Virus record (IMG/VR): IMGVR_UViG_3300027896_000027
DNA: 20,000 nt
Reading direction: 5' to 3' (one strand)
Origin: an uncultured virus (IMG/VR IMGVR_UViG_3300027896_000027)
Lineage: Duplodnaviria; Heunggongvirae; Uroviricota; Caudoviricetes
This document shows positions 1,867 through 19,009 of this stretch, piece by piece (within the stretch, counting starts at the first letter, position 1; the number at the start of each line of letters is the position of its first letter). Made by a program: the position numbers and the translations under genes. The notes under the pieces were generated by a model. It was given only the letters and a program-made list of their open reading frames with translations, was not told the DNA's origin and did no database searches.

Positions 1867-1878
1867 GAAAAGAACAAA

Positions 1879-3282
1879 ATGGAGATAGATGCAGTAAATA
1901 TTAAGCAGTCAACCGCCGATCCAATGGTCATTGATACGGGGAACCAAAAGATTCAGGGGCGGGTTGCGTCAAAGACCGTTCAATTTGGGCTTTTCACCAA
2001 CAACCGAAACGCAGTCTGGGCCTCCAAGAATCAGTTGAGAAAGGAATCTTACCCGTTCGCCACGCTTAATTTAAAGGTGAATCGAAACGCTTTTCCCTTT
2101 GAGACTGGCGATACCTTTAAATTTTCTTACTCAAAATATAACATCGTAGACATGGTGGTAAGAGTCCTGCAGAGAGGCGAGGCGGAACTTGAGTCAGAGG
2201 AAATTAACGTCGTGGTGATGGAAGATCTTTTTCAGATCACCAACACGATCTCAGAATACTCACCCACAACAAATCGTAAGCAGCCAAGGGTAGATTATAC
2301 GGTTGGCCCGATTATTCATGAAAAGCTTTTTGAACCTGTCTATGCTTGGTCTCTTGGAGAAGTGGCCATAACCCCCTTAGCTGCCAGAGAGTCTCAGATT
2401 GACCTTGGGTTCAATGCCTATATGAGTCTGGATGAAGGGGCTTCCTATTCTATAAACCCAATTGCTAAGGGATTATTTTTCAGGGCTTACGGGACGCTCG
2501 TTGGAAGCTATCCCAAAGAGACTTATGAGATCGATGAGTTGGTGGGGATGGTGATCGACTTTTCTAACGCGGATGTCGATCTGATTGAAAGTCAAACTTG
2601 GCCAGCGATTCTTTCGGGAAATCAAAACCTTGCTCTCCTTGGGGATGAGATCATTTCCTTTAAAACGATCACACCAGTTTCAGGGTCTCAATATAAGCTT
2701 GAGGACATCCTTCGAGGAAGGTATGGCACTATAAAACAGGCTCACGTAAATGGTGAAACTTTTTTCTTTCTTGGTCAGGATATCCCAGTCGTCACAAACA
2801 ATGATATTTCAACGGGAGCTGATAGGTTTTTTAAGCTCATTGGTTTTAATGCCGCTGAGTTTGGCGATATTTCTGTGGCGACTGCTATTGAACATCTATT
2901 CTTGGGGGTGGCGAAAACGCCCTACGTCCCGATTAATTTTGAAGCTAATGGCAATTCGTTTGCTGCCCGATACGATACTGACATCGTTCTCATCTGGTCG
3001 CCAAGGTATCGAAATAAAGGGGCGGGGATAGGAATTCCTGGGACAGTTCTTTCTGACCTGGATTATGAAGGTTTATTTGAGATTGAAGTTTGGGTTGGAG
3101 GCATTAAGGTGAGGACTCAAAGTGCCGTTGACGCCTTGACGTGGACTTATACCGAGGCGATGAATATCTCTGACAATGGTTCTCTGGCGAGCGAGGTGGC
3201 ATTTAAACTTTCTAACTATCGAACTGAAGATGTGATCACTTATCATTCGAGTCAGGCCCAAGTGACCTGTAAAAAGAATTAG
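1879..3282 (+). CDS. Phage tail tip/host-specificity protein, C-terminal part
   Basis: 467-aa ORF. The segments AVWASKNQLRKESYPFATLNLKV..FETGD and NLALLGDEIISF...ILRGRYGT resemble GTA/phage tail host-specificity proteins. Confidence 0.75.
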   Translation: MEIDAVNIKQSTADPMVIDTGNQKIQGRVASKTVQFGLFTNNRNAVWASKNQLRKESYPFATLNLKVNRNAFPFETGDTFKFSYSKYNIVDMVVRVLQRGEAELESEEINVVVMEDLFQITNTISEYSPTTNRKQPRVDYTVGPIIHEKLFEPVYAWSLGEVAITPLAARESQIDLGFNAYMSLDEGASYSINPIAKGLFFRAYGTLVGSYPKETYEIDELVGMVIDFSNADVDLIESQTWPAILSGNQNLALLGDEIISFKTITPVSGSQYKLEDILRGRYGTIKQAHVNGETFFFLGQDIPVVTNNDISTGADRFFKLIGFNAAEFGDISVATAIEHLFLGVAKTPYVPINFEANGNSFAARYDTDIVLIWSPRYRNKGAGIGIPGTVLSDLDYEGLFEIEVWVGGIKVRTQSAVDALTWTYTEAMNISDNGSLASEVAFKLSNYRTEDVITYHSSQAQVTCKKN

Positions 3283-3291
3283 GAGGCTTTT

Positions 3292-4074
3292 ATGGATAAC
3301 GACAAGTATGGTCTTCATGACGTCCTCTATGGTGTCCAGGGCTGGGATGCGATCATGGCAACCGACATGCAGATCATCAACGATCAGATGCCGACGAGGA
3401 TCATAGGAACTCTCGGGGAAACTGTCGTGGCCTATCAAGCTCTATACCAAAAGGCTGCTGATTCAAAATGGTGGAAGGCTAAAGCGGACGGGGCCAAACA
3501 GCCGTGCCAGGGATTAGCGGTTGAGGGTGGGGACGCTGATGACGAGATAAGAATTCATCGGATGGGAGAGATCACCGACGTCTCTTGGGCGTGGGGAACG
3601 ATTGGGGCACCAATTTATCTTGACGCTTCGACTGCAGGCGCTTTGACCCAGACCGCTCCACCTGATAATGTTCAGATTATCGGTTATGCTAAATCAGCGA
3701 CCACGATGATCGTAATACTCGGAGTTTTAAATGTCGGCATCCAGAAATTTAGCCAGGGTGGAACGATCTATAAATCTGATGGGATAGTTGATGCTGCGAA
3801 CATCATCATCTGGGAAGCACCCTTCGCCTGCACGGTGACGAACGTAAAAGGTTATCGGGTCGGAGGAACTGGAGCAACAGTTAATGCAAGAAAGAATGGA
3901 GCGGATGATCATCTTGCCGGTGCTTTATCTTTAACGAACCCTGATGTGTGGATGGACGGCGGGGTAGTTCAAAATACCGCCTATGCTCTTGGAGATAAGC
4001 TTGAGATCATGTTAGTTTCAGTGGCGGGCAGTCCTACTCAGATTGCCATTAAAGTAGATTTTAAGAGGCCGTAA
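3292..4074 (+). CDS. Virion structural protein (DUF2190/cement- or fibre-like N-terminal domain)
   Basis: 260 aa with AGGAGG RBS. GETVVAYQALY..WWKAKAD..GLA..GAPIYL..AGALTQTAP pattern is typical of phage decoration/fibre proteins; lies in the tail module. Confidence 0.55.
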   Translation: MDNDKYGLHDVLYGVQGWDAIMATDMQIINDQMPTRIIGTLGETVVAYQALYQKAADSKWWKAKADGAKQPCQGLAVEGGDADDEIRIHRMGEITDVSWAWGTIGAPIYLDASTAGALTQTAPPDNVQIIGYAKSATTMIVILGVLNVGIQKFSQGGTIYKSDGIVDAANIIIWEAPFACTVTNVKGYRVGGTGATVNARKNGADDHLAGALSLTNPDVWMDGGVVQNTAYALGDKLEIMLVSVAGSPTQIAIKVDFKRP

Positions 4075-4077
4075 AAA

Positions 4078-7000
4078 ATGTCTTGGCTGAGCGGTTGGTC
4101 TTACAGAAAAAACAGACCGATAAAAAGGACTGACGGGCTTGTTACCAACTATCAGATGAAGCTTCTGGTAGGTGAAAGTGCTGGTTTGGGTAATGTCGAC
4201 TGCGCTGGCCACGTCTTATCGAATTTCAATGATCTTCGTTTTACTAATCTAAATGGCGATGTCCTTGATTATTGGATTGAGTCAATAAGCGGAACGGGCA
4301 CGAATCATATTGCTACGGTCTGGATTGAATTCGATTCGATCGATACCTCTGATACCACCTTCTACATGTACTACGGAAAGGCAGATGCGCCGGCTTACAG
4401 CGATGGGGCCGCTACATTCTTATTCTTTGATCATTTCTTGGGGTCGAGTCTCGGCGCTCAGTGGAACTCGCAGGGAACTCCTACTGTCTCTGGAAGTGAG
4501 GTGGCTCTCAAATCGGCAGCGACAGGTTGGGATGCAATTAAAGCAGCATTATACACGATTCAGTATGCCCGGATTAGGTCAAGATTTAAAGTAAGTGCTG
4601 TAAATAATCACGCTAATGGGCTTTCCAATAGCGCGATGAACACTACCTTCTACGCCGATGAAAGTGCTTATTTTCTTGGCGTGCCAGGCACTCCCGCACA
4701 AGTTTATGCTATCTCCTCACATAATGGGACTTTAACCCAAAGTTCTCATGTGAACTGGGATGGCTCGTATATGATCGGAGAGATGCTTTGGAAAAGTGGA
4801 GAGATTAAATATGCTAAGGATGATGCGGCAGCGTTTGCTACCTATACGACAAATCTACCAGATACGGCTTGTGCCCCACGAGCGGATGGAGCGCACGGTG
4901 CAAGCCAAGGAACCTTGACCCTTGATTGGTATTTTGTTAGCCAATATCTTTCTCCAGAACCAGCTTGGCAAGGTAGCTGGTCAAGTGAAGAACCGACAAC
5001 TACAAGTACGACAACTACAACTACTACGACTACAAGCACGACGACTACAAGCACGACGACCACAACCACAAGTACCACGACCACAAGTACCACGACCACA
5101 ACCACGAGTACGACGACCACAACCACAAGTACCACGACCACAAGTACCACGACCACAACCACGAGTACGACGACCACAACCACGACAACAACAACCACTA
5201 CGGCGGGACCAGATATACCTTGGATCGATAATTTTAATGACGGGTCTTTGGATACTACAAAATGGGGGACTTCCGTCGCGGGGGATGGTGCCGTTGACGA
5301 ACCAGCTGGAGATACCTTAGACATTACTGAGGGCGCAAATGCTAACAACGCCGCCATAGTTTATCTGAAGGACATTATTGATACCACGAAGGAATATGTC
5401 TACACCGTTAGGCATAAGATCGATGGGACGCCAAACGGTGGGATATTTTTACTTGCCGCGTATGACGGGGTTCCTGCCGTTTCAGACAATAATACGGTCA
5501 ATGCTAATCTAAGGCTTCAGGTTCTTTATGTTACGGGTACACCGGATCGTATTTACGTGGTTTACACTGATACATCTGGCAACTCTGAATATTGGGATGG
5601 GAGTTCTTGGCACACTGAGCCTACTCATATTGATATTATTGATGAGGCATCTTGGATAGATGTTTCTTTCATTGTTAAAAATAATAGTTGGAGAGTTTCA
5701 GTCAGGCGTTCAGACAATGCCAAGTCAATAGTTGAAGCCTATCCAATAGCTTTTTCTGCCCTTAAGGCTTACACAAATCTCCGTCTTTTTTGGGGGGATG
5801 CTTACAACAATTATTATTACGTCACCTCAATGAAGACCGACTTTTTTCGGTACGACAATCAGACTCCGATTTGGGGATGGTATAATGGTTGTACTGCCGC
5901 TGGGAACGATTACAAGATAGGTGGATGCATTTCCTACGACGGTGGAGACGTATTTCTGCGTCACCATGGCCTCTGGGATGTTGGTCCGTTGACGGGTGAG
6001 AATCAGGTTTGGGGTCCATGTGTCATTGAAGTTTCCGGGACCCTTTATATGTTTTACACGGTATATAGAAGTGCTGATCCATATAGCACAAAAAGAAGGA
6101 TTAGGCTATGCCATTCGTCCGATGGTGAGACCTGGACGGACGATGGGTATGTAACAACGCCCGGAGGCGCTGGAGCATGGGACGAGAATGGACACACCTT
6201 TCCACTGGTGGCTTATGACTCGATCGCAAATAATTTCAAGATGTATGTGGCGGGTTTTAATGCCTCTAATATTTATCAGGTGGGTTTATTTACTGCCGAT
6301 ACCATCACTGGGCCATGGACGCCAAATGGAGGCAACCCGATCATTGCGGTTGGTGGGGTAGGTTCATGGAATGAAACGGTTGTCATGGCTTTTGCCATTG
6401 AAGGGGGTTCTTACTTAACCCTTTGGGTTACTGGTGCAGATGCCGCCAACCTTTATAAGGTTGGAAAATATACCTCAATAGATTGGGTGACGTGGACTCC
6501 AGACGGATCAAACCCGATCATAGCCAGGGATGCTTCCAAGACTACTACTGCGTCTAATGTGGCCGCGTATGCTAAATCGATAACCGTGGCTGACAGTTCC
6601 CTGTTCTCTGTAAATGACCCAATCATAATTAGAGATACCGCTAATCAGGAGATAAATAGAATCTTAGGAATTCCAAATTCAACTCAGATTGATCTCTGGT
6701 ATCAGATTGATTGTGCCTATGGCTATACTACTCCTAATGTAATCGGACTTAACCACGATGATTTGGGTCAGGGTAATATTGGCGGGTCTCTTGCTTTTTT
6801 ATCAAGTTGGTTTCAGGCTACTCCCCACTCAGAAAAGATGTCTCGATGGGAGCTTAGCGGTGGAGTATGGGTTTATAAACCGTTAAAGAGTCCTGGATTA
6901 TCAGTGGGTGCGGTGTGGGATGCGGTTAGCGCTGAAAACCTAAAGTTCATACAGCCCAATATTTCACTGTCGGGTACGACGACCACAACCAGTACGACCA

Positions 7001-7173
7001 CGACCACTACAACGACCACCTCAACAACTACGACATCTACGACAACCACAACAACCAGTACCACCACGACCACTACAACGACCACCTCAACAACTACGAC
7101 ATCTACGACAACCACAACAACCAGTACCACAACAACATCGCCGCCCATCTTTATCTTGTGGCTGAGCGAATGA
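4078..7173 (+). CDS. Large virion-associated protein: DUF2341-like N-terminus, Thr/Ser tract, lectin-like domain, GH32/43/130-like five-bladed beta-propeller, second Thr/Ser tract
   Basis: 1031 aa. WLSGWSYRK...FNDLRFT..LDYWIE..TFYMYYG is DUF2341-like. Repeated blades WGPCVIEV..LYMFYT, HSSDGETWT, WDENG..FP, GPWT..GGNPII, WNE, SIDWVTWT..GSNPII. Confidence 0.7.
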   Translation: MSWLSGWSYRKNRPIKRTDGLVTNYQMKLLVGESAGLGNVDCAGHVLSNFNDLRFTNLNGDVLDYWIESISGTGTNHIATVWIEFDSIDTSDTTFYMYYGKADAPAYSDGAATFLFFDHFLGSSLGAQWNSQGTPTVSGSEVALKSAATGWDAIKAALYTIQYARIRSRFKVSAVNNHANGLSNSAMNTTFYADESAYFLGVPGTPAQVYAISSHNGTLTQSSHVNWDGSYMIGEMLWKSGEIKYAKDDAAAFATYTTNLPDTACAPRADGAHGASQGTLTLDWYFVSQYLSPEPAWQGSWSSEEPTTTSTTTTTTTTTSTTTTSTTTTTTSTTTTSTTTTTTSTTTTTTSTTTTSTTTTTTSTTTTTTTTTTTTAGPDIPWIDNFNDGSLDTTKWGTSVAGDGAVDEPAGDTLDITEGANANNAAIVYLKDIIDTTKEYVYTVRHKIDGTPNGGIFLLAAYDGVPAVSDNNTVNANLRLQVLYVTGTPDRIYVVYTDTSGNSEYWDGSSWHTEPTHIDIIDEASWIDVSFIVKNNSWRVSVRRSDNAKSIVEAYPIAFSALKAYTNLRLFWGDAYNNYYYVTSMKTDFFRYDNQTPIWGWYNGCTAAGNDYKIGGCISYDGGDVFLRHHGLWDVGPLTGENQVWGPCVIEVSGTLYMFYTVYRSADPYSTKRRIRLCHSSDGETWTDDGYVTTPGGAGAWDENGHTFPLVAYDSIANNFKMYVAGFNASNIYQVGLFTADTITGPWTPNGGNPIIAVGGVGSWNETVVMAFAIEGGSYLTLWVTGADAANLYKVGKYTSIDWVTWTPDGSNPIIARDASKTTTASNVAAYAKSITVADSSLFSVNDPIIIRDTANQEINRILGIPNSTQIDLWYQIDCAYGYTTPNVIGLNHDDLGQGNIGGSLAFLSSWFQATPHSEKMSRWELSGGVWVYKPLKSPGLSVGAVWDAVSAENLKFIQPNISLSGTTTTTSTTTTTTTTTSTTTTSTTTTTTSTTTTTTTTTSTTTTSTTTTTTSTTTTSPPIFILWLSE
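4996..5202 (+). repeat. Coding low-complexity Thr/Ser tract 1 (69 codons) with an exact 57-bp tandem duplication
   Basis: 5053-5109 is identical to 5110-5166, and a partial third copy follows. Confidence 0.95.
6976..7140 (+). repeat. Coding low-complexity Thr/Ser tract 2 (55 codons) with an exact 66-bp tandem duplication
   Basis: 6997-7062 is identical to 7063-7128. Confidence 0.95.
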
Positions 7174-7185
7174 AAGGAGAAGATT

Positions 7186-7377
7186 ATGTTTCAAGAAAAG
7201 ATTAAATGCTGTGAGTGTCAAGCTTGGGAAAGAGACGGGGCAGATGGAATATGTAGACGAAAGTCTCCTGTACCAGCGTGCCTTCCGAACAATGCAAAAG
7301 GATTTACTCTTGTGTGGCCAAGAACCAAGGCCAATGAAGGATGCTTTGAAGGCATTCTGATAGAGGTAAAAAGTTGA
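7186..7377 (+). CDS. Small Cys-rich hypothetical phage protein
   Basis: 63 aa, AAAGGAG RBS, CCECQAW..GICRRKSP..WP.T....CFE pattern. Confidence 0.7.
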   Translation: MFQEKIKCCECQAWERDGADGICRRKSPVPACLPNNAKGFTLVWPRTKANEGCFEGILIEVKS

Positions 7378-8441
7378 AGCTGAGTGTCGTGATCCCAAAC
7401 CGGAACGACACGGTGATGTTGGCCATCACGGTCAGAAGCGTTCTTGAGGAACTGAAGGCCGTCGAGGGTGGCGGAGAGATCGTGATCGTTGACAACTCAG
7501 ATGAAGATCTTTGGTTGATCTTGAAGACCATGAACGTCAGCCCTCTCGCCCTTCAGTACGTCGAAGAGGGGAAGATCCAACTGATTCATCAAAAGTTTCA
7601 AAGTATCTATTCTGCACGAGGAGAGGCTTTCAGATCAGCGAGAGGAGAATATTCTTATAATGTCGACAGCCACATGCTCGTCGGTCACAACACCTTGAAG
7701 GACATGGTTGACTTCATGGATGCAGACACAGAAGGCAAGGTTGGATTTGCTTTCTCACCGATCGGTTGGTTCAATGCCCACGAGGCCATCGCAAGGCACG
7801 ATATCCGAATTGACCAGGGGACGATCTTCGGCAACTGGGGAAAGCGATATTATAAGCCGATGAAGATCTGCTGGAACTTTGGATCGTGCATCTGTCGAAC
7901 AAAATGGTTCAATGAGGATTTTGGAGGATACGGTTTCTTTGACAAGAAAAGAGTTTCCTGGGGCGGCGGAGAATTTTACGCCGCCATAAAAAGTTGGCTT
8001 TTAGGATATGAAAATTGGGCGGTTCCAACAAGCCCTCAATATCACATTGGCCCATTTTCAAAAGAGATTGAGTCAAGGACTTGCTACCGATTCAGACAGT
8101 ACGGGGGTTCAGGGAACGGAAAACTTGGCATTGGAATCTTTGCGGCCTTCTATGCCCTTGGCGGAGATGAGATGAAGGAAGAGGCACGGAACGCAGAAGT
8201 CGCTGGCGTGGGGAGTAACTATGGCCTTAGCGTCGAGCGAGATTGGGAAACAGCCAAGGAACTTGCGCACGAGGATTGGCTGTGGTTGCGGGATCGACAG
8301 AAGTTAACCTATTTTAAGCTCATGGAAAAACAACCCTGGAGGGAAGACGGATGGGGAGATTGGAACAACTGGAAGCCGGACAAAGACGCCGGGATAAAAA
8401 GGGTCTTCAATCTGGCCAATCTAAGAGTGATCGAAAGATAA
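7374..8441 (+). CDS. GT-A fold glycosyltransferase (GT2/GT27, polypeptide GalNAc-transferase-like)
   Basis: LSVVIPNRND, EIVIVDNS, ARGEY..VDSH (DxH at 7665-7673), WGGGE....KSWLLG....VPTSPQYHI. The TTG start overlaps the upstream stop codon. Confidence 0.85.
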   Translation: MKLSVVIPNRNDTVMLAITVRSVLEELKAVEGGGEIVIVDNSDEDLWLILKTMNVSPLALQYVEEGKIQLIHQKFQSIYSARGEAFRSARGEYSYNVDSHMLVGHNTLKDMVDFMDADTEGKVGFAFSPIGWFNAHEAIARHDIRIDQGTIFGNWGKRYYKPMKICWNFGSCICRTKWFNEDFGGYGFFDKKRVSWGGGEFYAAIKSWLLGYENWAVPTSPQYHIGPFSKEIESRTCYRFRQYGGSGNGKLGIGIFAAFYALGGDEMKEEARNAEVAGVGSNYGLSVERDWETAKELAHEDWLWLRDRQKLTYFKLMEKQPWREDGWGDWNNWKPDKDAGIKRVFNLANLRVIER

Positions 8442-8455
8442 CGCAAAGAACCTGG

Positions 8456-8914
8456 ATGAAAGGCATCATCGCCGACGTTCATCCGAGCGTAAAGTTTGGA
8501 AAGAATGTTTCGGTCTGGTCATTCGCCGTGATCTGTCAGGGAGTGAAAATAGGAGAGAATTGTGCGATCGGTTCGGGCGTGTTTATAGGCAAGAATTGCA
8601 GGATAGGCAATAACGTGAGGATCCAAGATAAGGCACACTTGACTCCGGGCATGATCGTTGAGGACAATGTCTTCATCGGCCCGTGCGCCGTAACAATGAA
8701 CGATAAATACCCGGTCGTATTAAATCCTGATTACGCAAAGCGGCCACCTCATTTGCTGGAGGGGTGTTCGATTGGGGCAGGGGCTGTCATACTTCCTGGA
8801 GTCACAATTGGCAGAGATGCAACGGTGGGTGCGGGGGCAGTTGTGACGAAGGATGTTCCCGACAAGGTAACGGTTGTTGGATGCCCAGCAAGAGGAACAT
8901 TAGAATTAAAATAA
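8456..8914 (+). CDS. Hexapeptide-repeat (left-handed beta-helix) acetyltransferase, WbpD/FdtC-like sugar N-acetyltransferase
   Basis: IGENCAIG, IGNNVRIQ, VEDNVFIGP..MND, IGAGAVILPGVTIG..ATVGAGAVVTKDVP...VVGCPAR. Start placed at ATG 8456; the ORF is open from 8351. Confidence 0.85.
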   Translation: MKGIIADVHPSVKFGKNVSVWSFAVICQGVKIGENCAIGSGVFIGKNCRIGNNVRIQDKAHLTPGMIVEDNVFIGPCAVTMNDKYPVVLNPDYAKRPPHLLEGCSIGAGAVILPGVTIGRDATVGAGAVVTKDVPDKVTVVGCPARGTLELK

Positions 8915-8935
8915 CCTATCGGAAAGGGGACTAAA

Positions 8936-9361
8936 TTGAAAAAAAGATTAAGGGTTATTCTGATTGTCGTATTCGGATTAATTTCCGTCGTCTGTTTGTT
9001 GAATGGCCAGGCAAATGTTTATCCAGGAGCAGTACCTGAGCCTTTTCATTTCTCTTTAACGGAAGTCGTTGGTCTGATCAGCGGGGTTATTTCAATATTC
9101 ATGGTCATCGTGGGATTTCTGCTCAAGCGATCCGTCTTTGGAGAAATCGATGGGGTAAAAATTTTGGTTGAAAAGATGGATATCAGGAAACAGGATAAGA
9201 CGATGTGCGAACAGATCGAATCTGTGGCTTGTAGAGATCGTGAGGAGATGAAGAAGGATCTTAAGGATGGGGTTAAAAAATTCAGCAGGATAGATCGGAA
9301 CATTGACCGTATCATGTTGAAAATGAAGCTTCCGACCGAGGACAATAAGGTCGACGATTGA
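8936..9361 (+). CDS. Membrane protein, possible holin/antiholin
   Basis: N-terminal hydrophobic segment, a second TM (VVGLISGVISIFMVIVGFLL) and a charged C-terminal tail; first gene of the lysis-like block. Confidence 0.45.
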   Translation: MKKRLRVILIVVFGLISVVCLLNGQANVYPGAVPEPFHFSLTEVVGLISGVISIFMVIVGFLLKRSVFGEIDGVKILVEKMDIRKQDKTMCEQIESVACRDREEMKKDLKDGVKKFSRIDRNIDRIMLKMKLPTEDNKVDD

Positions 9362-9377
9362 AAGGAGGAAAGAAATC

Positions 9378-10118
9378 ATGAAAAGAAGATATGATTGGAT
9401 TAGAGATCTACCAGACCATAGGGACTTTATGTTCTTGCGGTTGCCGACGAAAATTCCGAGTGCGGTTGATCTTCGTCCGAAGTGTTCTCCGATAGAGGAT
9501 CAATTGAATCTCGGAAGCTGCACGGCAAATGCCGGAGTGGGCATCTATGAGTGTCTTGAGCACATTCAGGGGATGAGGTTTGATAATAAGTCTCGATTGC
9601 TCCTTTACTATAATACCCGGCTCATTGAGCGTACGGTTAACACCGACAGTGGAGGTACTATCAGAGATACGTTTAAGGCTCTTGCCAAGTGGGGAGTTTG
9701 CTCAGAAAAGTTATGGCCGTATGACATTCAAAAATTCGCAGTGCTGCCTCCGAAAAATTGTTATGCTGACGCCATAAAACACGAGATCATCGTTTATCAA
9801 AGGCTGTCTGTCCTCGATGATTTGCTCAACTGCCTTGCTCTTGGCTATCCGTTTGAATTTGGCTTCTCAGTTTATCAGTCCTTTGAGAGTGCTAAGGTTG
9901 CCAGGACTGGAATAGTGCCGATGCCGAAAAAGACCGAGGCTTTTCTCGGGGGCCATGCGGTCGACGGGGTTGGCTACGAGATAGATAAGAAGTGGATCAT
10001 CTGCCGGAACTCGTGGGGGCCAAAGTGGGGGGACTACGGATATTTTTATCTCCCATTTGATTACATTTCCAATCCCAATCTGGCCGCTGATTTTTGGGTG
10101 GCAAAGAAAGAGACGTGA
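9378..10118 (+). CDS. Papain-like cysteine peptidase (C1A)
   Basis: VDLR, DQLNLGSCTANA (catalytic Cys), GGHAV (His), RNSWG..WGD.GYFY (Asn). Confidence 0.9.
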   Translation: MKRRYDWIRDLPDHRDFMFLRLPTKIPSAVDLRPKCSPIEDQLNLGSCTANAGVGIYECLEHIQGMRFDNKSRLLLYYNTRLIERTVNTDSGGTIRDTFKALAKWGVCSEKLWPYDIQKFAVLPPKNCYADAIKHEIIVYQRLSVLDDLLNCLALGYPFEFGFSVYQSFESAKVARTGIVPMPKKTEAFLGGHAVDGVGYEIDKKWIICRNSWGPKWGDYGYFYLPFDYISNPNLAADFWVAKKET

Positions 10119-10166: not shown

Positions 10167-10352
10167 ATGATCGAAACTATCTTGACGGCGATTGCGAGGA
10201 AGGTCATATTTATGGCTCTCTTGTTTGGAGCTTATAAGTTCATCGACAATTTCTACTTTAAAGCATTTGACACCGATGTGGTGATTAAGGAGAATCCCAT
10301 TGCGATTTCGATTTTGCTTGGTCTTTTTGCTGTTGCCCTTGCTTTTGCTTAG
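10167..10352 (+). CDS. Small two-TM membrane protein (holin candidate)
   Basis: AAAGGAGGTG RBS before ATG 10167; two hydrophobic segments; overlaps the transglycosylase start. Confidence 0.55.
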   Translation: MIETILTAIARKVIFMALLFGAYKFIDNFYFKAFDTDVVIKENPIAISILLGLFAVALAFA

Positions 10353-10878
10353 TTGTAAAGGGGAGATAACAACAGAGGCAATAGCTGAGCCAGTGGTGAC
10401 TAAAGTGTCAATCCCTGAGTCGGTTGGGAAGTATGATTTACTCTTCAAGCGATGGGGTGAGTTCTATTTCCCTTTTGACGATTGGCGTTGGTGGAGGTGT
10501 CAAGGAATAGCAGAAAGTAATCTCGACCCAAATGCAGTGTCATGGTGTGGGGCTGTCGGAGTCATGCAAATCATGCCTGCTACTGCAACGGGTTTGGGTG
10601 TAAAAAACAGGTTGGATGCGGAGGAGAGCATTCAGGGAGGAATTAAATACGACAATCAGGTTGATAGAGTTTTTAAAAGTGTTGACCAGCCGGAGCGGAG
10701 GAAATTCATGTTTGCTGGTTACAATGCTGGACCTGGAAATATTATAAAGGCTAAAAAATTGGCCGGTTCTGATGTGTGGGATATTACCGCAAATTCTCTT
10801 AACCTTGTCACCGGCCATAATTCGTTAGAGACAATAAACTACGTTAAGAGGATCTGCAAAATTAAAAAAGACCTTTGA
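10300..10878 (+). CDS. Lytic transglycosylase (SLT/MltF-like domain), predicted lipoprotein; probable endolysin
   Basis: AESNLDPNAVS..GAVGVMQIMPATA, AGYNAGPGN, ETINYV; lipobox-like LLLLSC; AAGGAG RBS before the TTG. Confidence 0.88.
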   Translation: MRFRFCLVFLLLPLLLLSCKGEITTEAIAEPVVTKVSIPESVGKYDLLFKRWGEFYFPFDDWRWWRCQGIAESNLDPNAVSWCGAVGVMQIMPATATGLGVKNRLDAEESIQGGIKYDNQVDRVFKSVDQPERRKFMFAGYNAGPGNIIKAKKLAGSDVWDITANSLNLVTGHNSLETINYVKRICKIKKDL

Positions 10879-11269: not shown

Positions 11270-11689
11270 ATGACAAAGATATTAGTATTTATCAAATCGC
11301 TTCCGTGGTGGATTTGGATTGCTGCGATTATCGGAGTGATCTTTCTCTGGCAGGCTCTTTCTGGATGGTCGATGTCCAGAAAGTATTTCAACCTGGCCGT
11401 TCAGGGTCTCAAGACGGAAGAGTCTCAGGCCCTCAAGGATAAGGACGAATACATCAAGGCGTGCGAAAAGGACATCCAAGAAAAGAAGGCAGAGATCGAT
11501 CAGATCAAAAAAGAAAAGGCAGCATTACAGATCGATAAAGTCAATTCGGCCGCTGAAGTTGTCCGGCTAAAAAGGAGCAACGATGACCTTAAAAGGCAGA
11601 TTCGAGAAATCATTATTCCTGATGATCCTGATCGGATCATTGACGATCTGCGGAAACGCTTTCCCTCAATCCATAAGATTCAGCCTTGA
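11270..11689 (+). CDS. N-terminal TM plus coiled-coil protein (i-spanin/Rz-like)
   Basis: GGGAGG RBS; WWIWIAAIIGVIFLW TM followed by a heptad-rich coiled coil; lies downstream of the endolysin. Confidence 0.55.
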   Translation: MTKILVFIKSLPWWIWIAAIIGVIFLWQALSGWSMSRKYFNLAVQGLKTEESQALKDKDEYIKACEKDIQEKKAEIDQIKKEKAALQIDKVNSAAEVVRLKRSNDDLKRQIREIIIPDDPDRIIDDLRKRFPSIHKIQP

Positions 11690-12032
11690 ACTTCCAGATC
11701 TCAAGGAGTGGGATAAGCAGACCCAAGAATATCCGCTTCAAAAGAAATTGATCGACGATCAGGCCAAGACAATTCAGGAGCTTGAAAAGTCTCTCGCCAT
11801 AGAAGTCCGAACCAATGAACTGAACCAGCGAGAGCTCAATTTAAAAGATCAGATCATCGGATTAAAAGATCAGGAGATAGCAGCGACGAACAGAGCCAAC
11901 GCTCAGTTGAAAGACGTCGCAGATAGGGCCATTAAGTTGGCTGAGATCTCGAAGCCGAAATCCAACTGGGAACTCCAGGGAATTCTCTCTGGGATGGCGT
12001 TAGCCGTCGGATATTTTCTCGGTCGGAGATAA
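11583..12032 (+). CDS. Secreted coiled-coil protein with C-terminal hydrophobic anchor (second spanin-like component)
   Basis: AAAGGAG RBS inside the previous gene (107-nt overlap, different frame); signal-like N-terminus, coiled coil, C-terminal GILSGMALAVGYFLGRR. Confidence 0.5.
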   Translation: MTLKGRFEKSLFLMILIGSLTICGNAFPQSIRFSLELPDLKEWDKQTQEYPLQKKLIDDQAKTIQELEKSLAIEVRTNELNQRELNLKDQIIGLKDQEIAATNRANAQLKDVADRAIKLAEISKPKSNWELQGILSGMALAVGYFLGRR

Positions 12033-12216
12033 CCCATGAGGAGCATGGTGATTCCCATCGTTAGACCGATCGTATATGGCGTAACACCCCCTTATTAGTC
12101 CAGGGAATATTCTCCTTCAACCCTTTATCCCCTTTTATTAAAACCCGCAAAACTCCATCCCTAAAACCTTAATAATATTAATGGGTTATTCGCTTCTCTT
12201 TTTTTTCTTTATTTTC

Positions 12217-12245
12217 TTGATTTTTACTTTGTGGTATACTATAAT
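12217..12245 (+). promoter_or_regulatory. Sigma70-type promoter
   Basis: TTGATT (12217-12222), 17 nt, TATAAT (12240-12245); overlapping TGnTATACT; T-rich upstream tract. Confidence 0.6.
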
Positions 12246-12442
12246 ACTCTGGACAGGTGAGGGGACAGTGAGATATATAGTGAGATTATTGGAGAATTTA
12301 TACAAGGAAAACAAAGTGGCAAAAAATGGTATTTTGGTGGCAAAATGCCGGCACTTTTTAAACATGACCATTTTTAACCTATTAAGATTATTACAGAAGA
12401 TTTTTTACAAAGTTGGAGCGGTTCTTGGATATATAATAGACA

Positions 12443-12455
12443 TGGTCTTTGACAA
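12443..12455 (+). promoter_or_regulatory. boxA-like antitermination element
   Basis: TGGTCTTTGACAA matches the rrn boxA consensus TGCTCTTTAACAA at 11/13, just after TATAAT at 12432-12437. Confidence 0.5.
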
Positions 12456-12599
12456 TTAAATATCCCGAACATCCAAAGTAGGGAAGCCAATACGAAGCAG
12501 ACCAAGCTGGTTGGTCAGTTAGATGGACGAAGCAGACTCTGAGGGGTCTGAAAGTAGTCCTCCCCGAATGGCTCAAAAACAAAGAGGGCGGGGCAGAGA

Positions 12600-12670
12600 G
12601 CAGAGGGGCAGAAGAATGAGCAATCAATCTTCTGCTAATGCACAAAGCCTGGTCCCAAGTCCAGGGTAAA
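12600..12670 (+). ncRNA. Twister ribozyme, circularly permuted (type P5-like)
   Basis: GCA(P2') GAGGG GCAGAAGA(P1') ... TCTTCTGC(P1) TAA TGC(P2) AC AAAG CCTGG TCCCAAGT CCAGG(P4) GTAAA. Pseudoknots CCC/GGG and AC/GT. Predicted cleavage between U12636 and A12637. Confidence 0.8.
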
Positions 12671-12693
12671 TAAAAATCCAAAAGGAGGACGAT

Positions 12694-12849
12694 ATGGAAA
12701 ACAAAGAAAAGAGAATAGAGGCATACGGAGTGAAGGGATTAAAGAATACGCCATGGAGAAAAGTTTTTATAAGCCTTAAAGCCTTTGAAAAGTGGCTGGA
12801 AAAAAATGATGGCTATGTGGAGGTTCTTGGAACAAGAGAGGTAGAATAA
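12694..12849 (+). CDS. Small hypothetical early protein (51 aa, MENKEKRIEAYGVKGLKNTPWRKVF...)
   Basis: Translated manually (absent from the ORF track); AAAAGGAGG RBS; TAA at 12847-12849. Confidence 0.75.
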   Translation: MENKEKRIEAYGVKGLKNTPWRKVFISLKAFEKWLEKNDGYVEVLGTREVE

Positions 12850-12876
12850 TGGACAAATCAAGAAAGGAGGAAAGTC

Positions 12877-13005
12877 ATGAAGGGTAACATTACAAAGAAA
12901 AGCTTTTTTGGAATCTGGAAGGTCATTGGATTTCTAACAGCGATTAAGATTCTATTTTCTTTAGAGCCAGTCGCACTTCAAATCCTCGTTAAGGGGATTA
13001 AGTAA
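12877..13005 (+). CDS. Small hydrophobic hypothetical protein (42 aa, MKGNITKKSFFGIWKVIG...)
   Basis: Translated manually; AAAGGAGG RBS. Confidence 0.65.
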   Translation: MKGNITKKSFFGIWKVIGFLTAIKILFSLEPVALQILVKGIK

Positions 13006-13023
13006 AAAAGAAAGAAGGAGACC

Positions 13024-13221
13024 ATGAGAACAAGAAGTTATAAAAGAATGAAAGCTGAGACAGAAGAGAGAATAAGAAAAGATCTTCAAAACAAAAAGTG
13101 TAAAATCTGTAAACGTGAAGGTTTAACCCTGGACAAAAATGATATCTGCCATAAATGCTGGCAGGATATTCAAGATTCAAAAGGAGGAGACCATGAAGAC
13201 AAAAGTTGTAATGGAGATTGA
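13024..13221 (+). CDS. Small Zn-finger-like protein (CKIC...CHKC)
   Basis: AAGGAG RBS; two CxxC pairs. Confidence 0.6.
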   Translation: MRTRSYKRMKAETEERIRKDLQNKKCKICKREGLTLDKNDICHKCWQDIQDSKGGDHEDKSCNGD

Positions 13222-13339
13222 AGTCAATGATGGTGAGATGGATGGCGACGGTCAAATTGAAGAATATATTAAAATGACCTTGGAAAATGGACCAGCAAAG
13301 GTCACGGTTGATTCAATCAACGCCAGGGAAATTTATTAA
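13193..13339 (+). CDS. Small acidic hypothetical protein (48 aa)
   Basis: AAAAGGAGG RBS before ATG 13193, an internal Met of track ORF 13139..13339. Confidence 0.65.
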   Translation: MKTKVVMEIEVNDGEMDGDGQIEEYIKMTLENGPAKVTVDSINAREIY

Positions 13340-13378
13340 AACCCTTAACCGCTCAATGAGCAAAAACGGAGGAGACCA

Positions 13379-13975
13379 ATGGAAAAGAATAAAATGTATG
13401 AGATCACTGTGGTAGAAGTAACACAATATGGGGCAAGCAGTTCACGTGTAGGCCTTAAACTTAATTCTCTGGAAGATTGCAAGAAGATCATTGAGATTGC
13501 TAAAATTGCAAATTGAGAAATTAACCTGACTGACGGCAGCTTTAGCGAAGAGTTGGTAGAAAGGTCTGAAGCATATCAAAATTTCCTTAACAAGGAAGCA
13601 GATGAGCGGGTGGAGTGGATCAAAAGCCAGATTGAAAAAACCGAGCGGATTAACGCTACTCCTAAAGAGTATATTTCCAAGATCCAACTTCCCGATGGTT
13701 GCAAGATTACCTATGAGCGCTCAGACGCCAATTTTAAGGCCCACATCTCTTCAAAAATTAGTTGGGGCCTTGGCACCAAGGTTTTTCACAATGAACATTC
13801 TCGATCGCTTTATGTCTATGAATATACCACCAAGGATATGCGAGTTCAGGTTGGTAAATTTGCCCGTGACATGACAGGATTTTTTGGAGAGGCCAGGCAT
13901 CAGATCAACCCTGAAATTATCCGTGACATTGTAAAAGAATTTGATGAGATCAGCGCCAAGATTAGAAACTCATAA
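13379..13975 (+). pseudogene. Hypothetical gene interrupted by a single in-frame TGA at 13514-13516 (nonsense, readthrough, or two ORFs)
   Basis: GGAGGAG RBS and ATG 13379 give 45 codons, then TGA, and the same frame continues without a stop into track ORF 13553..13975, which lacks a good RBS. Confidence 0.55.
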
Positions 13976-13976
13976 A

Positions 13977-14031
13977 ATCATCCTGACGAGACCTGAATGG
14001 TCGAAACCCGAGTTAAGCTCGGGTCGGTGAT
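13977..14031 (+). ncRNA. Hammerhead ribozyme, type I
   Basis: Stem I ATCATC/GGTGAT; core CTGACGA (13983-13989); stem II GACC-TGAAT-GGTC; GAAA (14003-14006); stem III CCCGAG-TTAAG-CTCGGG; GTC cleavage triplet, cut after C14025. Confidence 0.93.
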
Positions 14032-14060
14032 AAAATAAAATCCAAAAGGAGGATGAAAAG

Positions 14061-14375
14061 ATGAACGAACGACAGGCACAAGAGAAAGGGTATCATTTTC
14101 ATGGAGCGTATTCCCACAGTAAAGAAGAGATGAAGCGAACGGCAGCAGGGTTGAGAGAGAAAGGAAACAAAGCCATTGTGGTAGATGTCCCGTCCAGTAA
14201 ATATTCTCGGGGGGGCGGAGGCATGGGATACTCAGTGTATTGGATTGAGTCTGAGGAGAACATCATAGAAAGGCACAAAGTGGAAGATCTCTTAAAGAGA
14301 AATCAATTACTTGCGGAGCGAGAAGGACTCGTTGCTCGTATTGCAGAGATCGATTCTTTGGTGAAAGAACTTTAA
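14061..14375 (+). CDS. Hypothetical early protein
   Basis: 104 aa, AAAAGGAGG RBS. Confidence 0.75.
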   Translation: MNERQAQEKGYHFHGAYSHSKEEMKRTAAGLREKGNKAIVVDVPSSKYSRGGGGMGYSVYWIESEENIIERHKVEDLLKRNQLLAEREGLVARIAEIDSLVKEL

Positions 14376-14407
14376 TTTTAGAATCTATTTAAAAGGAGGA
14401 TGAAAAA

Positions 14408-14629
14408 ATGGCAATAAAACAATTACCAAACAGAGGAGAGAAGCTTGAGAATGGGGCCACAGTAATTGATTCAGCATTGGGAAAAACATATCCTATCGTC
14501 TTAGCGATGTGGCGTTCCGAATTCGTCACATGGGATTGGAACGCAGAAGAAGGCTACATTTATGCTGGAAATTATTTTACAGATATCTTAGCCGCAGCGA
14601 AGGATTTTAAAAAGAGATTGAATGGTTGA
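14408..14629 (+). CDS. Hypothetical early protein
   Basis: 73 aa, AAAAGGAGG RBS; LENGATVI..EFVTW..GNYF..A..DF..R pattern seen in small phage proteins. Confidence 0.75.
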   Translation: MAIKQLPNRGEKLENGATVIDSALGKTYPIVLAMWRSEFVTWDWNAEEGYIYAGNYFTDILAAAKDFKKRLNG

Positions 14630-16288: not shown

Positions 16289-16504
16289 ATGAAGCAAATA
16301 GATAATGTCAATTTTCACCTCACAATGACAAAGAGATTTATTTCTATCACCATTAAATATACTTGCCTTTGTGGAAGCACCATTACAGCACATCGGTACA
16401 TCCCGGGAGGAAACCAGCCCATCGTGTGTGTGAAGTGCGGTAAAACCTTGAGGTTGGTAGAGAGGAGGAAAAGTGAATATCGAAAGAGTTCGAATCAACT
16501 ATGA
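16289..16504 (+). CDS. Small Zn-ribbon protein (YTCLCG...CVKCG)
   Basis: AAAGGAGG RBS; CxC and CxxC motifs. Confidence 0.65.
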   Translation: MKQIDNVNFHLTMTKRFISITIKYTCLCGSTITAHRYIPGGNQPIVCVKCGKTLRLVERRKSEYRKSSNQL

Positions 16505-16997
16505 TGACTACAGACGGCTTATCGCCGAAAGAGCATGGTACTGGGCCGAACGCACAGGATGGGATTTTGCAGAACTAATGGCGGAGGGTAATCTTGTTTT
16601 CGTCCTGGCCCTTCGAGAATGGAAGAGGGAGAGATCTCGCTTTTCTACATTCCTTTATATTCGACTCAACGGTCGCTTTGGCAACTTGACCAAAGGACTC
16701 TGGAGAGGAGAAATAGCGGACGTAGATCCAGATCAGATTTCGTCTTCCGACGGCAATCCTGAGCATGTAGAAGCTTTAAAGGAGATGATTAGGCACTTGT
16801 CTAAAGATGCCCGAACCCTGGTCGAGTGCATCCTGGAGACCCCGCGAGATCTGATGTGGATGGTTGGACATCATGGGAAAGGTGTCAAAATTACTAAGCG
16901 TAAGCTCGAGAAGTATTTTGTCCAGAAAAAGGGTTGGAGCCACCCGCGGTGCTGGCAGGCGTCCTCAGAGATTCGTTTAGCGTTGAATACCTTATAA
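16473..16997 (+). CDS. Phage-encoded sigma70-family (region 2-containing) sigma factor-like protein
   Basis: ELMAEGNLVFVLALREWKRERSRFSTFLY resembles sigma region 2 (DLIQEGN.GL..A...F......FSTYA); AGGAGG RBS before the GTG; helical C-terminus. Confidence 0.7.
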   Translation: MNIERVRINYDDYRRLIAERAWYWAERTGWDFAELMAEGNLVFVLALREWKRERSRFSTFLYIRLNGRFGNLTKGLWRGEIADVDPDQISSSDGNPEHVEALKEMIRHLSKDARTLVECILETPRDLMWMVGHHGKGVKITKRKLEKYFVQKKGWSHPRCWQASSEIRLALNTL

Positions 16998-17011
16998 AAG
17001 AGGGGGTTAAA

Positions 17012-19009
17012 ATGAGCCAAACAGCCGACAAGGCCACTAAAGCGCAACCTGTTACCACCTATGAGGAGTTATCTCAATTAATTGACTCCTCTCCAGAGTG
17101 GACTGTGGGTTGCCTCATCAAGCTCTACCAGTTACAGACTCCAGATGAGCAACAGGCGCGGGCTACCCATCATCTCAATGATTGCGGGTTCAATAGCTTC
17201 GATGCCGGCCCCTTGACCAGCATGGCCCGGTTCTATTTGGACAGAGGGTTTCTGACGCTGAGACAGCTGGCTTTTGCCCGCAATACTCTTAAGAAGTATG
17301 TTAATCAGTTGCTCCAGGTTGGAGTTGATCCCTTGCCCGTTAAGCCTTTCACTCCAGTCCGAGAGAGAACCATCCAGACGGCCTCTCTGTTACTTAAAGA
17401 TGAGAAACCGGTGGGGATTCAGGTTCGGTTCAACTTCCCAAGAGGGGATAAGCGGTTCGGTGAGATGGTCGCCAACATTAAGAGTCTGCCTGACCGCCAC
17501 TGGATTCCTGAACAGAAGTATTGGAGAGTAGGCTTATCATTGGAAGGGGGGAAGAAACTGAAAGAGTGGGGATTTCAATTCTCTGACGGCCTCCAGAAGT
17601 GGTTTGATGATTTGGTCAGACCTGTCGATGAGAAGTCCATAGACATGAGCCAGCTTGATTCCCGTCTCTATCCGTTTCAACGTACGGGGGTAGCTTTTAT
17701 CGAATCTCGGAAAGGGAGGGCATTGATTGGTGATGAAATGGGGCTCGGGAAAACTGCTGAGGCTGTTTCCTGGCTCAAGCTTCATCCTGATTTGAGACCT
17801 GTAATTGTGGTTTGCCCAGCGTCATTGAAAATCAATTGGGAGAGAGAACTGAAATTGTGGGGGCTTGAGAAGGAGAGGATTCAAATCGTTTCTGGAAAGA
17901 AAAATGGTTATGTCTTAACTGGTCAGATTATCATTATTAACTATGATATTCTGACAGCTTGGCTGGGAGCTCTGGAGACTTACAAGCCGAGGGTTGTAAT
18001 CCTTGACGAAGTCCATTATACGAAATCTCGAAAAGCTCAAAGGACTAAAGCCTCTAAGGTATTGGCCAAAAAGGTCCCTCATATAATCGCACTTAGCGGT
18101 ACTCCAATCGTCAATCGACCAATAGAATTTTTCAATTCCATAAATATGATTCGTCCAGACATATTCCCTGATTTTTGGTCTTTTGCTCAGAACTTTTGTG
18201 GTGCACAGTGGAATGGATTTGGATGGAACTTCAGCGGGGCCACCAATACTGATAAGCTCCACAAACTTCTAACAGAAACCATCATGCTCCGGCGTCTCAA
18301 GAAAGATGTCCTAAAAGATCTTCCTGACAAGGTTCATGCGGTAGTGCCTTTTGAGATTGAAAATAGAGATGAGTATAACCGGGCATCGACTAACATCATT
18401 GATTGGATTCTGAAGAATGAGGGGAAAGAGAAAGCCGATCGAGCTTCGCAGGCGGAGGTTTTAGTGGAATTTGAAAAGCTCAAACAGTTGGCTGTAAGGG
18501 GGAAGATAGAATTTGTCAAAGAGTGGGTTGCTGACTTCCTGGAGTCTGAAGAGAAGTTAGTCCTGTTCGCCACTCACACTTTAACCCTTGATATGCTCCA
18601 ACGGGCTTTTCCAAAGATTTCTGTTCGGCTTGATGGATCAACATCTCAGAAGGACCGACAGAGGGTAGTTGATGAGTTTCAGAATAATAATAGGGTCAAA
18701 CTCTTCCTGGGGAATGTTAAAGCGGCGGGGATTGGTATTACCCTCACCTCAGCCAGTAATGTTGCCTTTGTAGAACTCCCTTGGACCCCAGGAGATTATG
18801 AACAAGCTTCTGATCGGCTCCATAGGATAGGCCAGAAGGACACGGTCAACGTCTGGACGCTGGTGGCTCAGGACACCGTTGAAGAAGATATCGCAGTCAT
18901 ACTTTCAGAGAAACAAAAGGTCTTGGCAGCGGTTCTGGATGGTAGGCAAGTTGATGAAGGAACGGTCCTAAGTCTGTTGATTCAAAAGATAAAAGAAAAA
19001 AGACTTTAA
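17012..19009 (+). CDS. SNF2-family helicase/ATPase (SMARCAL1/HARP-like) with extra N-terminal domain
   Basis: LYPFQ, DEMGLGKT, VCPASLKINW, DEVH, LSGTPIVN, LRRLKKDVL, GIGITLT, QASDRLHRIGQ; start at ATG 17012 after GAGGGGG. Confidence 0.92.
   Translation: MSQTADKATKAQPVTTYEELSQLIDSSPEWTVGCLIKLYQLQTPDEQQARATHHLNDCGFNSFDAGPLTSMARFYLDRGFLTLRQLAFARNTLKKYVNQLLQVGVDPLPVKPFTPVRERTIQTASLLLKDEKPVGIQVRFNFPRGDKRFGEMVANIKSLPDRHWIPEQKYWRVGLSLEGGKKLKEWGFQFSDGLQKWFDDLVRPVDEKSIDMSQLDSRLYPFQRTGVAFIESRKGRALIGDEMGLGKTAEAVSWLKLHPDLRPVIVVCPASLKINWERELKLWGLEKERIQIVSGKKNGYVLTGQIIIINYDILTAWLGALETYKPRVVILDEVHYTKSRKAQRTKASKVLAKKVPHIIALSGTPIVNRPIEFFNSINMIRPDIFPDFWSFAQNFCGAQWNGFGWNFSGATNTDKLHKLLTETIMLRRLKKDVLKDLPDKVHAVVPFEIENRDEYNRASTNIIDWILKNEGKEKADRASQAEVLVEFEKLKQLAVRGKIEFVKEWVADFLESEEKLVLFATHTLTLDMLQRAFPKISVRLDGSTSQKDRQRVVDEFQNNNRVKLFLGNVKAAGIGITLTSASNVAFVELPWTPGDYEQASDRLHRIGQKDTVNVWTLVAQDTVEEDIAVILSEKQKVLAAVLDGRQVDEGTVLSLLIQKIKEKRL

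Follow-up and report, generated by a model that had tools for sequence, protein, structure and literature searches.

We analysed a window of 20 kilobases (kb; the whole stretch of 20,000 nucleotides, nt) from an uncultured Caudoviricetes virus (IMG/VR record IMGVR_UViG_3300027896_000027), in which two predicted self-cleaving ribozymes, a type-P5 twister (12599..12665) and a type-I hammerhead with a 6-bp stem I (13977..14031), lie on either side of a block of five small genes. Positions are given on the + strand throughout, and genes and open reading frames (ORFs) were called and searched against protein families (Pfam, PHROGs, NCBIfam). Both ribozymes are on the + strand and their predicted cuts enclose 1389 nt (14025-12637+1), within which each of the five genes has a Shine-Dalgarno (SD) sequence of the GGAG type. 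A preliminary description of this DNA, made from its letters, had placed two ribozymes on one strand around five genes with ribosome-binding sites, and its coordinates and gene count proved correct, with an in-frame TGA in the fifth gene left unmentioned. Relatives were collected with an alignment of gene-5 homologues as query, which gave six metagenome loci (L009-L014); one of them, L009, is identical to the window over 11605-14260 (2656/2656), and the gene-5 identity of the relatives is 59-66%, with 59% in L013. A further relative, G001, is a complete 74-kb IMG/VR genome whose tail and lysis genes are 77-95% identical to those of the window phage.

The upstream ribozyme matches the Rfam family RF02684 (Twister-P5) at 12599-12664 on the + strand with 51.0 bits, compared with a gathering score of 37.6 (E 3.5e-08), over the complete model (1-58 of 58), and this is the sole Rfam family to reach its gathering score across the window. 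Its fold is predicted to comprise P2 (GCA/UGC), a loop-closed P1 (GCAGAAGA/UCUUCUGC) and P4 (CCUGG/CCAGG), with GGG pairing with CCC of the P4 loop in the pseudoknot T2; T1 (AC with GU) was judged by eye alone and its alignment is uncertain. Mapping onto the Rfam consensus '..ggUAAUGC..' and its U-A step, the type of step at which twisters are described to cut (PMC6154101), puts the predicted cleavage between U12636 and A12637 (12636..12637), and this match and mapping bear out the cut that had been proposed before A12637. The predicted 3' product would begin with A12637 carrying a 5'-OH. In an alignment of four twisters (the window, L013, L014 and L002b), 71 of 72 cells pair and compensatory changes are found in 11 of 18 pairs, spanning P1, P4 and T2; two of the three T2 pairs are among them, T2 being GGG:CCC in the window and CC:GG in L014.

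The downstream ribozyme begins 2 nt past the stop codon of gene 5 and matches RF00163 (Hammerhead_1) at 13977-14031 on the + strand with 29.4 bits (E 0.0011 over 4227 families, at a permissive threshold), and the RAGATH-1 hammerhead variant (RF03152) scores 29.1 bits at the same place, compared with a cut-off of 56.3. Stem I (AUCAUC/GGUGAU) consists of six pairs, one of them G-U, and is followed by the core CUGACGA, stem II (GACC-UGAAU-GGUC), GAA, and stem III (ACCCGAG-UUAAG-CUCGGGU), after which comes C17, which is C14025. As in RF00163 and RF03152, stem I is open, stems II and III are closed, the core has the full consensus and the cut site is GUC, whereas the score lies below both cut-offs and the element belongs to a phage subfamily with an invariant stem II, a stem I of exactly 6 bp and flanking A residues. 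Under standard hammerhead numbering the cut is predicted after C14025 (14025..14026), in agreement with the preliminary description, and the 5' product would end in a 2',3'-cyclic phosphate. Every position of the core listed in PMC3088659 (C3 U4 G5 A6 N7 G8 A9 G12 A13 A14 A15.1 U16.1 H17, with core-adjacent mispairs excluded) is present, and the closing pairs G10.1-C11.1, C2.1-G1.1 and A15.1-U16.1 are intact. The end chemistry invoked for both classes, a 5'-OH and a 2',3'-cyclic phosphate, is textbook knowledge (PMC6765202).

We then scanned IMG/VR for the hammerhead core together with stem II (CTGANGAGACCTNNATGGTCGAAAC) and found 78 viral loci on 76 contigs; one of these loci (L050) lacks stem I, and a match located at the end of a contig was not used. 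The scan loci, the window and its relatives together provide 61 distinct hammerheads with all six stem-I pairs, of which 53 were aligned and 8 with long stem-III inserts were left out. Across the 778 cells of this alignment 100% are standard pairs, compared with 25-37% in slid controls, stem II and part of stem III being fixed by the search pattern. Compensatory changes occur in 9 of 15 pairs (6/6 in stem I and 3/5 in stem III), and the covariation score was reached by 0 of 500 shuffles. Stem II covaries where the pattern does not reach, being GGCC/GGCC in the third hammerhead of G001, and stem III changes from CCGAG/CUCGG in the window to CUGGG/CCCAG and CUGGA/UCCAG in L010 and L013. The subfamily is invariant in having a stem I of exactly 6 bp with an A on either side and a stem II of the form GACC-UNNAU-GGUC, and the constancy of loop II (UNNAU) and of the A residues flanking stem I suggests a tertiary contact. 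An SD and a start codon lie within 70 nt of stem I in 38 members (median ~28 nt). No ribozyme reached the Rfam gathering score at any of the 20 subfamily loci checked (0/20), and the Rfam thresholds therefore largely miss this phage subfamily. When cellular genomes were searched with the same pattern (one genome each of 185,579 species), five stretches were found, and the subfamily is thus rare in them. As regards a chance match, the E-values of both motifs are small and the stems of both covary in relatives.

Upon comparing the relatives, we observe that the ribozymes and the junctions they occupy differ between close phages. L013 has an upstream twister (50.2 bits) and a hammerhead directly after gene 5, enclosing 1232 nt. 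L010 also has a hammerhead directly after gene 5, with a different, 5'-truncated element upstream; here the gene-5 homologue and the ribozyme overlap (1176-1189), since its stop codon doubles as U4-G5-A6 of the hammerhead core and stem I falls within the final codons. L014 has a weaker upstream twister (34.4 bits) and no hammerhead, and in G001 the early module is inverted and carries three tandem hammerheads, 646 and 648 nt apart, with no twister. The gene on the 3' side of the hammerhead is a different one in the window, L010 and L013, while gene 5 on its 5' side is conserved. The motif and the exact junction vary in close relatives; what recurs is a predicted cut ~20-60 nt before a start codon and ahead of a conserved leader. 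A survey of related phages for paired ribozymes had been suggested at the outset, and its answer is mixed: the twister and hammerhead bracket recurs in a second lineage, formed by L013 and by L061, which equals the contig of L013 in length and carries the same hammerhead, and the pair is absent from L014, L010, G001 and L012. L061 is also the one subfamily locus among the 78 that has a P5 twister within 2.5 kb of its hammerhead, by a twister model built from four training sequences that sees only P5 twisters resembling those four. A mixed twister and hammerhead pair is uncommon in this sample; same-class tandems are more frequent, two copies of the hammerhead pattern being found 246-699 nt apart on 6 of 76 contigs. 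The gene-5 alignment found no relative among cellular genome contigs, so these give no clue to the host.

The leader that follows the cuts is a conserved A/U-rich segment with an SD (..UAAAUAAAAAUCCAAAAGGAGGA), found at 12667..12689 (+) and in a second copy at 14030-14053. Its 16-mer occurs in exactly two copies in the window plus one with 2 mismatches, and three matches were reached by 1 of 200 shuffles. L010, L013 and G001 have many copies of the same leader (..AUAAAAUCCAAAAGGAGGA), some next to a ribozyme and some not. The first gene on the 3' side of the hammerhead (14061..14375, +) encodes 104 amino acids (aa) and starts 35 nt past the cut; no ribozyme lies close to its homologues in L005 and L006 (50-55%), and a search of L005-L008, which hold relatives of this gene, gave no ribozyme at E <= 1.

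Among the five genes between the cuts, gene 1 (12694-12849, +; 51 aa) has no family match, and gene 2 (12877-13005, +; 42 aa) is hydrophobic and 93% identical to a gene of G001. Gene 3 (13024-13221, +; 65 aa) has a CxxC..CxxC pattern with weak hints of a zinc ribbon (phrog_29115, E 3.9e-4; DZR_2, E 0.005, below the cut-off). Gene 4 (13193-13339, +; 48 aa) has homologues in L013 (62%) and G001 (94%), and in the latter a hammerhead lies directly 5' of it. Gene 5 (13379-13975, +) is a single frame of 198 codons with an in-frame TGA at 13514-13516; nothing usable on its function came from Pfam, PHROGs, NCBIfam or Atlas, the best match of a PDB profile search had an E-value of 0.034, and its 140-aa part had one 17-residue match only among viral contigs. 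At the TGA site all eight homologous proteins have Trp (8/8) and all five relative loci have TGG (5/5), and the same TGA is found in the identical contig L009 and in a contig of the freshwater DNA run that contains the stretch. A different genetic code is ruled out as its cause: the genes of the window have 147 in-frame TGG and 1 in-frame TGA, and 9 of 27 terminate with TGA, counts from which we read it as a nonsense change and not as recoding. A nonsense allele, a split gene and low-level read-through are all conceivable.

We consider it likely that both motifs are working self-cleaving ribozymes through which an uncultured tailed phage from freshwater divides the transcript of a presumed early operon into linear mRNAs. 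This self-processing is the best-supported reading because the ribozymes look functional by sequence, structure and covariation, lie on one strand and have no terminator-like site between them, none having been found on the + strand over the whole of 12351-14500. The motifs are present and intact, their stems covary, and their position ahead of genes recurs in relatives; that the block is co-transcribed, that it is cleaved in vivo and that cleavage affects stability or translation we infer from the sequence. A rightward transcript would start in the AT-rich region after the lysis genes, and the twister would cut it co-transcriptionally between U12636 and A12637, stripping the 5' leader and leaving a 5'-OH 57 nt before the start of gene 1, with the P4 hairpin at that end. 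Cleavage by the hammerhead after C14025 would then release a five-gene piece with a structured 3' end (stems II and III with the cyclic phosphate), and the next message would receive a 5'-OH end 35 nt before its start codon. The outcome would be linear sub-operon mRNAs with defined ends and the same short A/U-rich leader and SD, the translation and decay of each block being uncoupled from its neighbours. Ribozyme-bounded blocks of this kind are comparable to synthetic ribozyme insulators such as RiboJ. The protection against decay that had been attributed to a 5'-OH end depends on the host; in Bacillus, for example, RNase J1 breaks down the 5'-OH RNA left by the glmS ribozyme. The proposal that the transcript divides itself into a leader, a 1389-nt cassette and a downstream mRNA thus holds up as the best-supported one, and it had already been published for phages in general form (PMC3088659).

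Several observations weigh against this self-processing. The hammerhead falls below the Rfam gathering score (29.4 vs 34), and its rate at cellular Mg2+ would depend on the loop-stem tertiary contact that the invariant residues suggest. For the aligned subfamily, the stem-I partner was picked by best pairing during extraction, which biases the alignment somewhat toward pairing. L012 has neither a twister nor a hammerhead, and L011 has no hammerhead downstream of gene 5 (its sequence is too short upstream); given such ribozyme-free relatives, cleavage is dispensable for these genes. Promoter-like sites are not above chance, five being found and 5.1 expected from shuffles, and because of this the label 'early' is taken from gene order only. 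The single sequencing run that contains the stretch is a freshwater DNA metagenome. As regards the low score, the complete core and the membership in a large covarying phage subfamily indicate that the sub-threshold hammerhead is genuine.

The surrounding genes are those of a tailed phage, and all long ORFs of the window are on the + strand. Tail proteins occupy 1-7173, followed by a glycosyltransferase, a hexapeptide transferase and a papain-like peptidase (7374-10118), an SLT-type lysin (10300-10878) and spanin-like genes (11270-12032). After the spanin-like genes comes a run of small genes without family matches, and beyond it lie a weak match to sigma-70 region 2 (16473-16997) and an SNF2-type helicase (16934-19009), all of these on the + strand. 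An AT-rich stretch (12100-12499, 31-34% GC) separates the spanin-like genes from the small genes, and within it is the best sigma-70-like promoter match of the region (TTGATT-17-TATAAT, 10/12; 12217..12245, +), which we tentatively take as the start of the twister-carrying transcript. This match is overlapped by a 92-aa ORF (12181-12459) with the low-complexity segment FFFFIFLIF and no homologues in the loci examined, which is probably not a gene. Further downstream, a non-coding block with stops in all three frames (12450..12524, +) is 80% identical to L013 1625-1700 (blastn, 76 nt, E 1.8e-14) and in both phages is placed 75-150 nt 5' of the twister. The block, which may be a promoter or leader element, opens with a perfect TTGACA (12449-12454). 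Over 13209-14400 the freshwater DNA run yielded only contigs that are identical to the window; blastn of 12400-14400, set for distant matches, against GenBank phages gave no match, and neither did the helicase as query against viral contigs.

Among the other explanations, the one that best withstands the evidence regards ribozyme and leader together as mainly a recurring junction where recombination reshuffles early genes, RNA cleavage having little effect on the genes at either side. The leader precedes many different genes, with at least nine copies on the minus strand of G001 (53.9-57.7 kb), with or without a ribozyme, and several in L010; the ribozymes occupy different junctions in close relatives, and, next to a conserved gene 5, the gene past the hammerhead differs between the window, L010 and L013. 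However, the intact cores and the strict compensatory change in all stems across the 53 sequences indicate selection for a folded, active RNA and not merely for a DNA repeat, and we judge it unlikely that the junctions serve shuffling with little role for cleavage. The idea of module boundaries and that of RNA processing are not mutually exclusive.

The preliminary description had also proposed that the cassette could circularise. Under this proposal a host RtcB-type ligase would join the excised 1389-nt piece head to tail through its 5'-OH and 2',3'-cyclic phosphate into a stable, translatable circle. The end chemistry is right in principle (PMC6765202), engineered ribozyme-flanked mRNAs are reported to be circularised by native RtcB in E. 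coli (PMC12628768), and the bracket of twister and hammerhead recurs in the second lineage, L013/L061, around a 1232-nt piece. The same report of engineered circularisation describes it as relying on matching ends (PMC12628768), whereas here, as had been remarked, no end-pairing stem is evident: the duplex of the first with the last 40, 60 or 80 nt has -14.3 to -21.9 kcal/mol, dinucleotide shuffles have -13.4 to -20.0, and a fraction of 0.23-0.38 of the shuffles is as good. No pairing is possible between AAUGCA, the new 5' end, and the hammerhead stem-I strand AUCAUC, and because the two ends derive from unrelated ribozymes no ribozyme fold can align both. In viroids, retrozymes and the Tornado system, ribozyme cuts at both ends give a 5'-OH and a 2',3'-cyclic phosphate that RtcB or tRNA ligases can join, as described in PMC7761336, PMC6765202 and PMC12628768. 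The window piece is like these RNAs in its predicted ends and unlike them in how the ends are held, since those use one ribozyme fold, a rod or designed complementarity and it has neither. Moreover, the two ribozymes are not kept as a pair (L014 with the twister only, L010 with the hammerhead and another element, G001 with three hammerheads, L012 with none), RtcB (PF01139) is not encoded in the complete G001 and is not among the Pfam matches of the window, and Perreault et al. 2011, who looked for circular or spliced RNAs made from tandem hammerheads, report that none was detected (PMC3088659). Of the papers that our literature searches listed, none names a natural phage mRNA circle formed by flanking ribozymes in its title or at the opening of its abstract. 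The circularisable cassette is thus unsupported, given its unpaired ends, its unrelated ribozymes and the lack of conservation of the pair. We regard head-to-tail joining of the piece as highly improbable, and a circular five-gene mRNA that is translated and makes early messages exonuclease-resistant as slightly less probable again; if true, a phage would be using a natural equivalent of the engineered Tornado system.

The idea that cutting unmasks a ribosome-binding site, the segment 5' of each cut pairing with the SD of the next gene until cleavage separates the two and turns translation on, is rejected as very unlikely, since the pairings of the minimum-energy fold in the window (UCAUCCU, 13978-13984, with AGGAUGA, 14048-14054; GUCCUCC, 12558-12564, with GGAGGAC, 12683-12689) are not kept in L010, which has GGAGGAGACC after the same stem I, nor in L013, where a stem I of GUCACC improves stem I and breaks the SD pairing and the twister leader has no anti-SD, and since upstream/SD duplexes at 38 subfamily hammerheads average -5.88 kcal/mol for real and -5.89 kcal/mol for mismatched pairs (p = 0.45).

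Further arrangements came to light among the collected loci. In the tandem hammerhead pairs (L017, L024, L046, L056, L058, L092), the 3' strand of the upstream stem I is fully pairable with the 5' strand of the downstream stem I in five of six cases, the sixth (L046) having one mismatch, and stem III has diverged in L017 and L046. Through such cross-pairing the two ends of an excised piece could come together again in a nicked hammerhead, in the manner of retrozymes; the complementarity could reflect recent duplication or be functional, and it does not apply to the twister and hammerhead pair of the window. Three near-identical IMG/VR contigs (L002-L004) carry four twisters on a single strand, three of type P5 and one P1-like, at distances of 600-1600 nt (L002 1451-4720), and by eye L002 also has two motifs that resemble type-III hammerheads, with U-U at 10.1/11.1, and an unassigned structured spacer. 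On the 3' side of each of these elements stands one and the same leader, AUCUAGAAAGGAAUGGAACAAUG, the combination of ribozyme and leader being repeated here in an unrelated phage. Finally, a conserved element of ~60-100 nt takes the place of a ribozyme directly 5' of the leader in L010 (1-65 and 2795-2890) and in L105/L106 (G001, minus strand, 375-470). Its core is CCGGCG(G/C)..AA(G/A)UUAA(G/A)GG with a closing stem of ~5 bp, and the four copies in two phages include one compensatory pair. It matches no Rfam family at E <= 10, and the window has no copy of it; its position makes it a candidate structured RNA or ribozyme.

Layouts in which ribozymes bracket and process phage transcripts are already known, and the window is a further case. 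Perreault et al. 2011 reported that hammerheads in prophages are often placed around genes or small blocks of them, and proposed that they process long phage transcripts, also raising spliced or circular products (PMC3088659). In their account, three tandem phage arrangements cut ~2-kb transcripts in vitro and one was active in E. coli, and the haloviruses HF1 and HF2 have a hammerhead 13 nt before the first early gene, with a mapped 5' end within 3 nt of the cut (PMC3088659). The window resembles those blocks as described in having same-strand ribozymes around small phage genes of varying identity, each just 5' of a start codon; it is unlike those single-class sets in that its predicted ribozymes are of two classes, twister and hammerhead. 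Twisters and hammerheads are described as sharing gene neighbourhoods, with the exact motif seeming unimportant, and polycistronic processing by such ribozymes as suggested and still unproven (PMC6765202). Roth 2014 and Weinberg 2015, as summarised in PMC6765202 and PMC4604425, associate twister and hammerhead with the same neighbourhoods and with each other in bacteria and phages. Our loci are like these associations in that two unrelated classes are interchangeable near phage genes, G001 having three hammerheads where the window has a twister and a hammerhead, and unlike them in that the mixed pair is uncommon in this sample (a P5 twister at 1 of 78 hammerhead loci).

By itself the locus raises no new question. 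The role of many phage self-cleaving ribozymes is described as still open (PMC6765202), and for that question the locus is a clean comparison case: in phages whose structural genes are 77-95% identical, one and the same early region carries, depending on the phage, a twister with a hammerhead, three hammerheads, only a twister, or no ribozyme at all. This distribution, read from the sequences, supports the view that it is the cut at that place that matters and not the motif that makes it, and the relatives are natural variants for asking whether the cut sets mRNA stability or translation.

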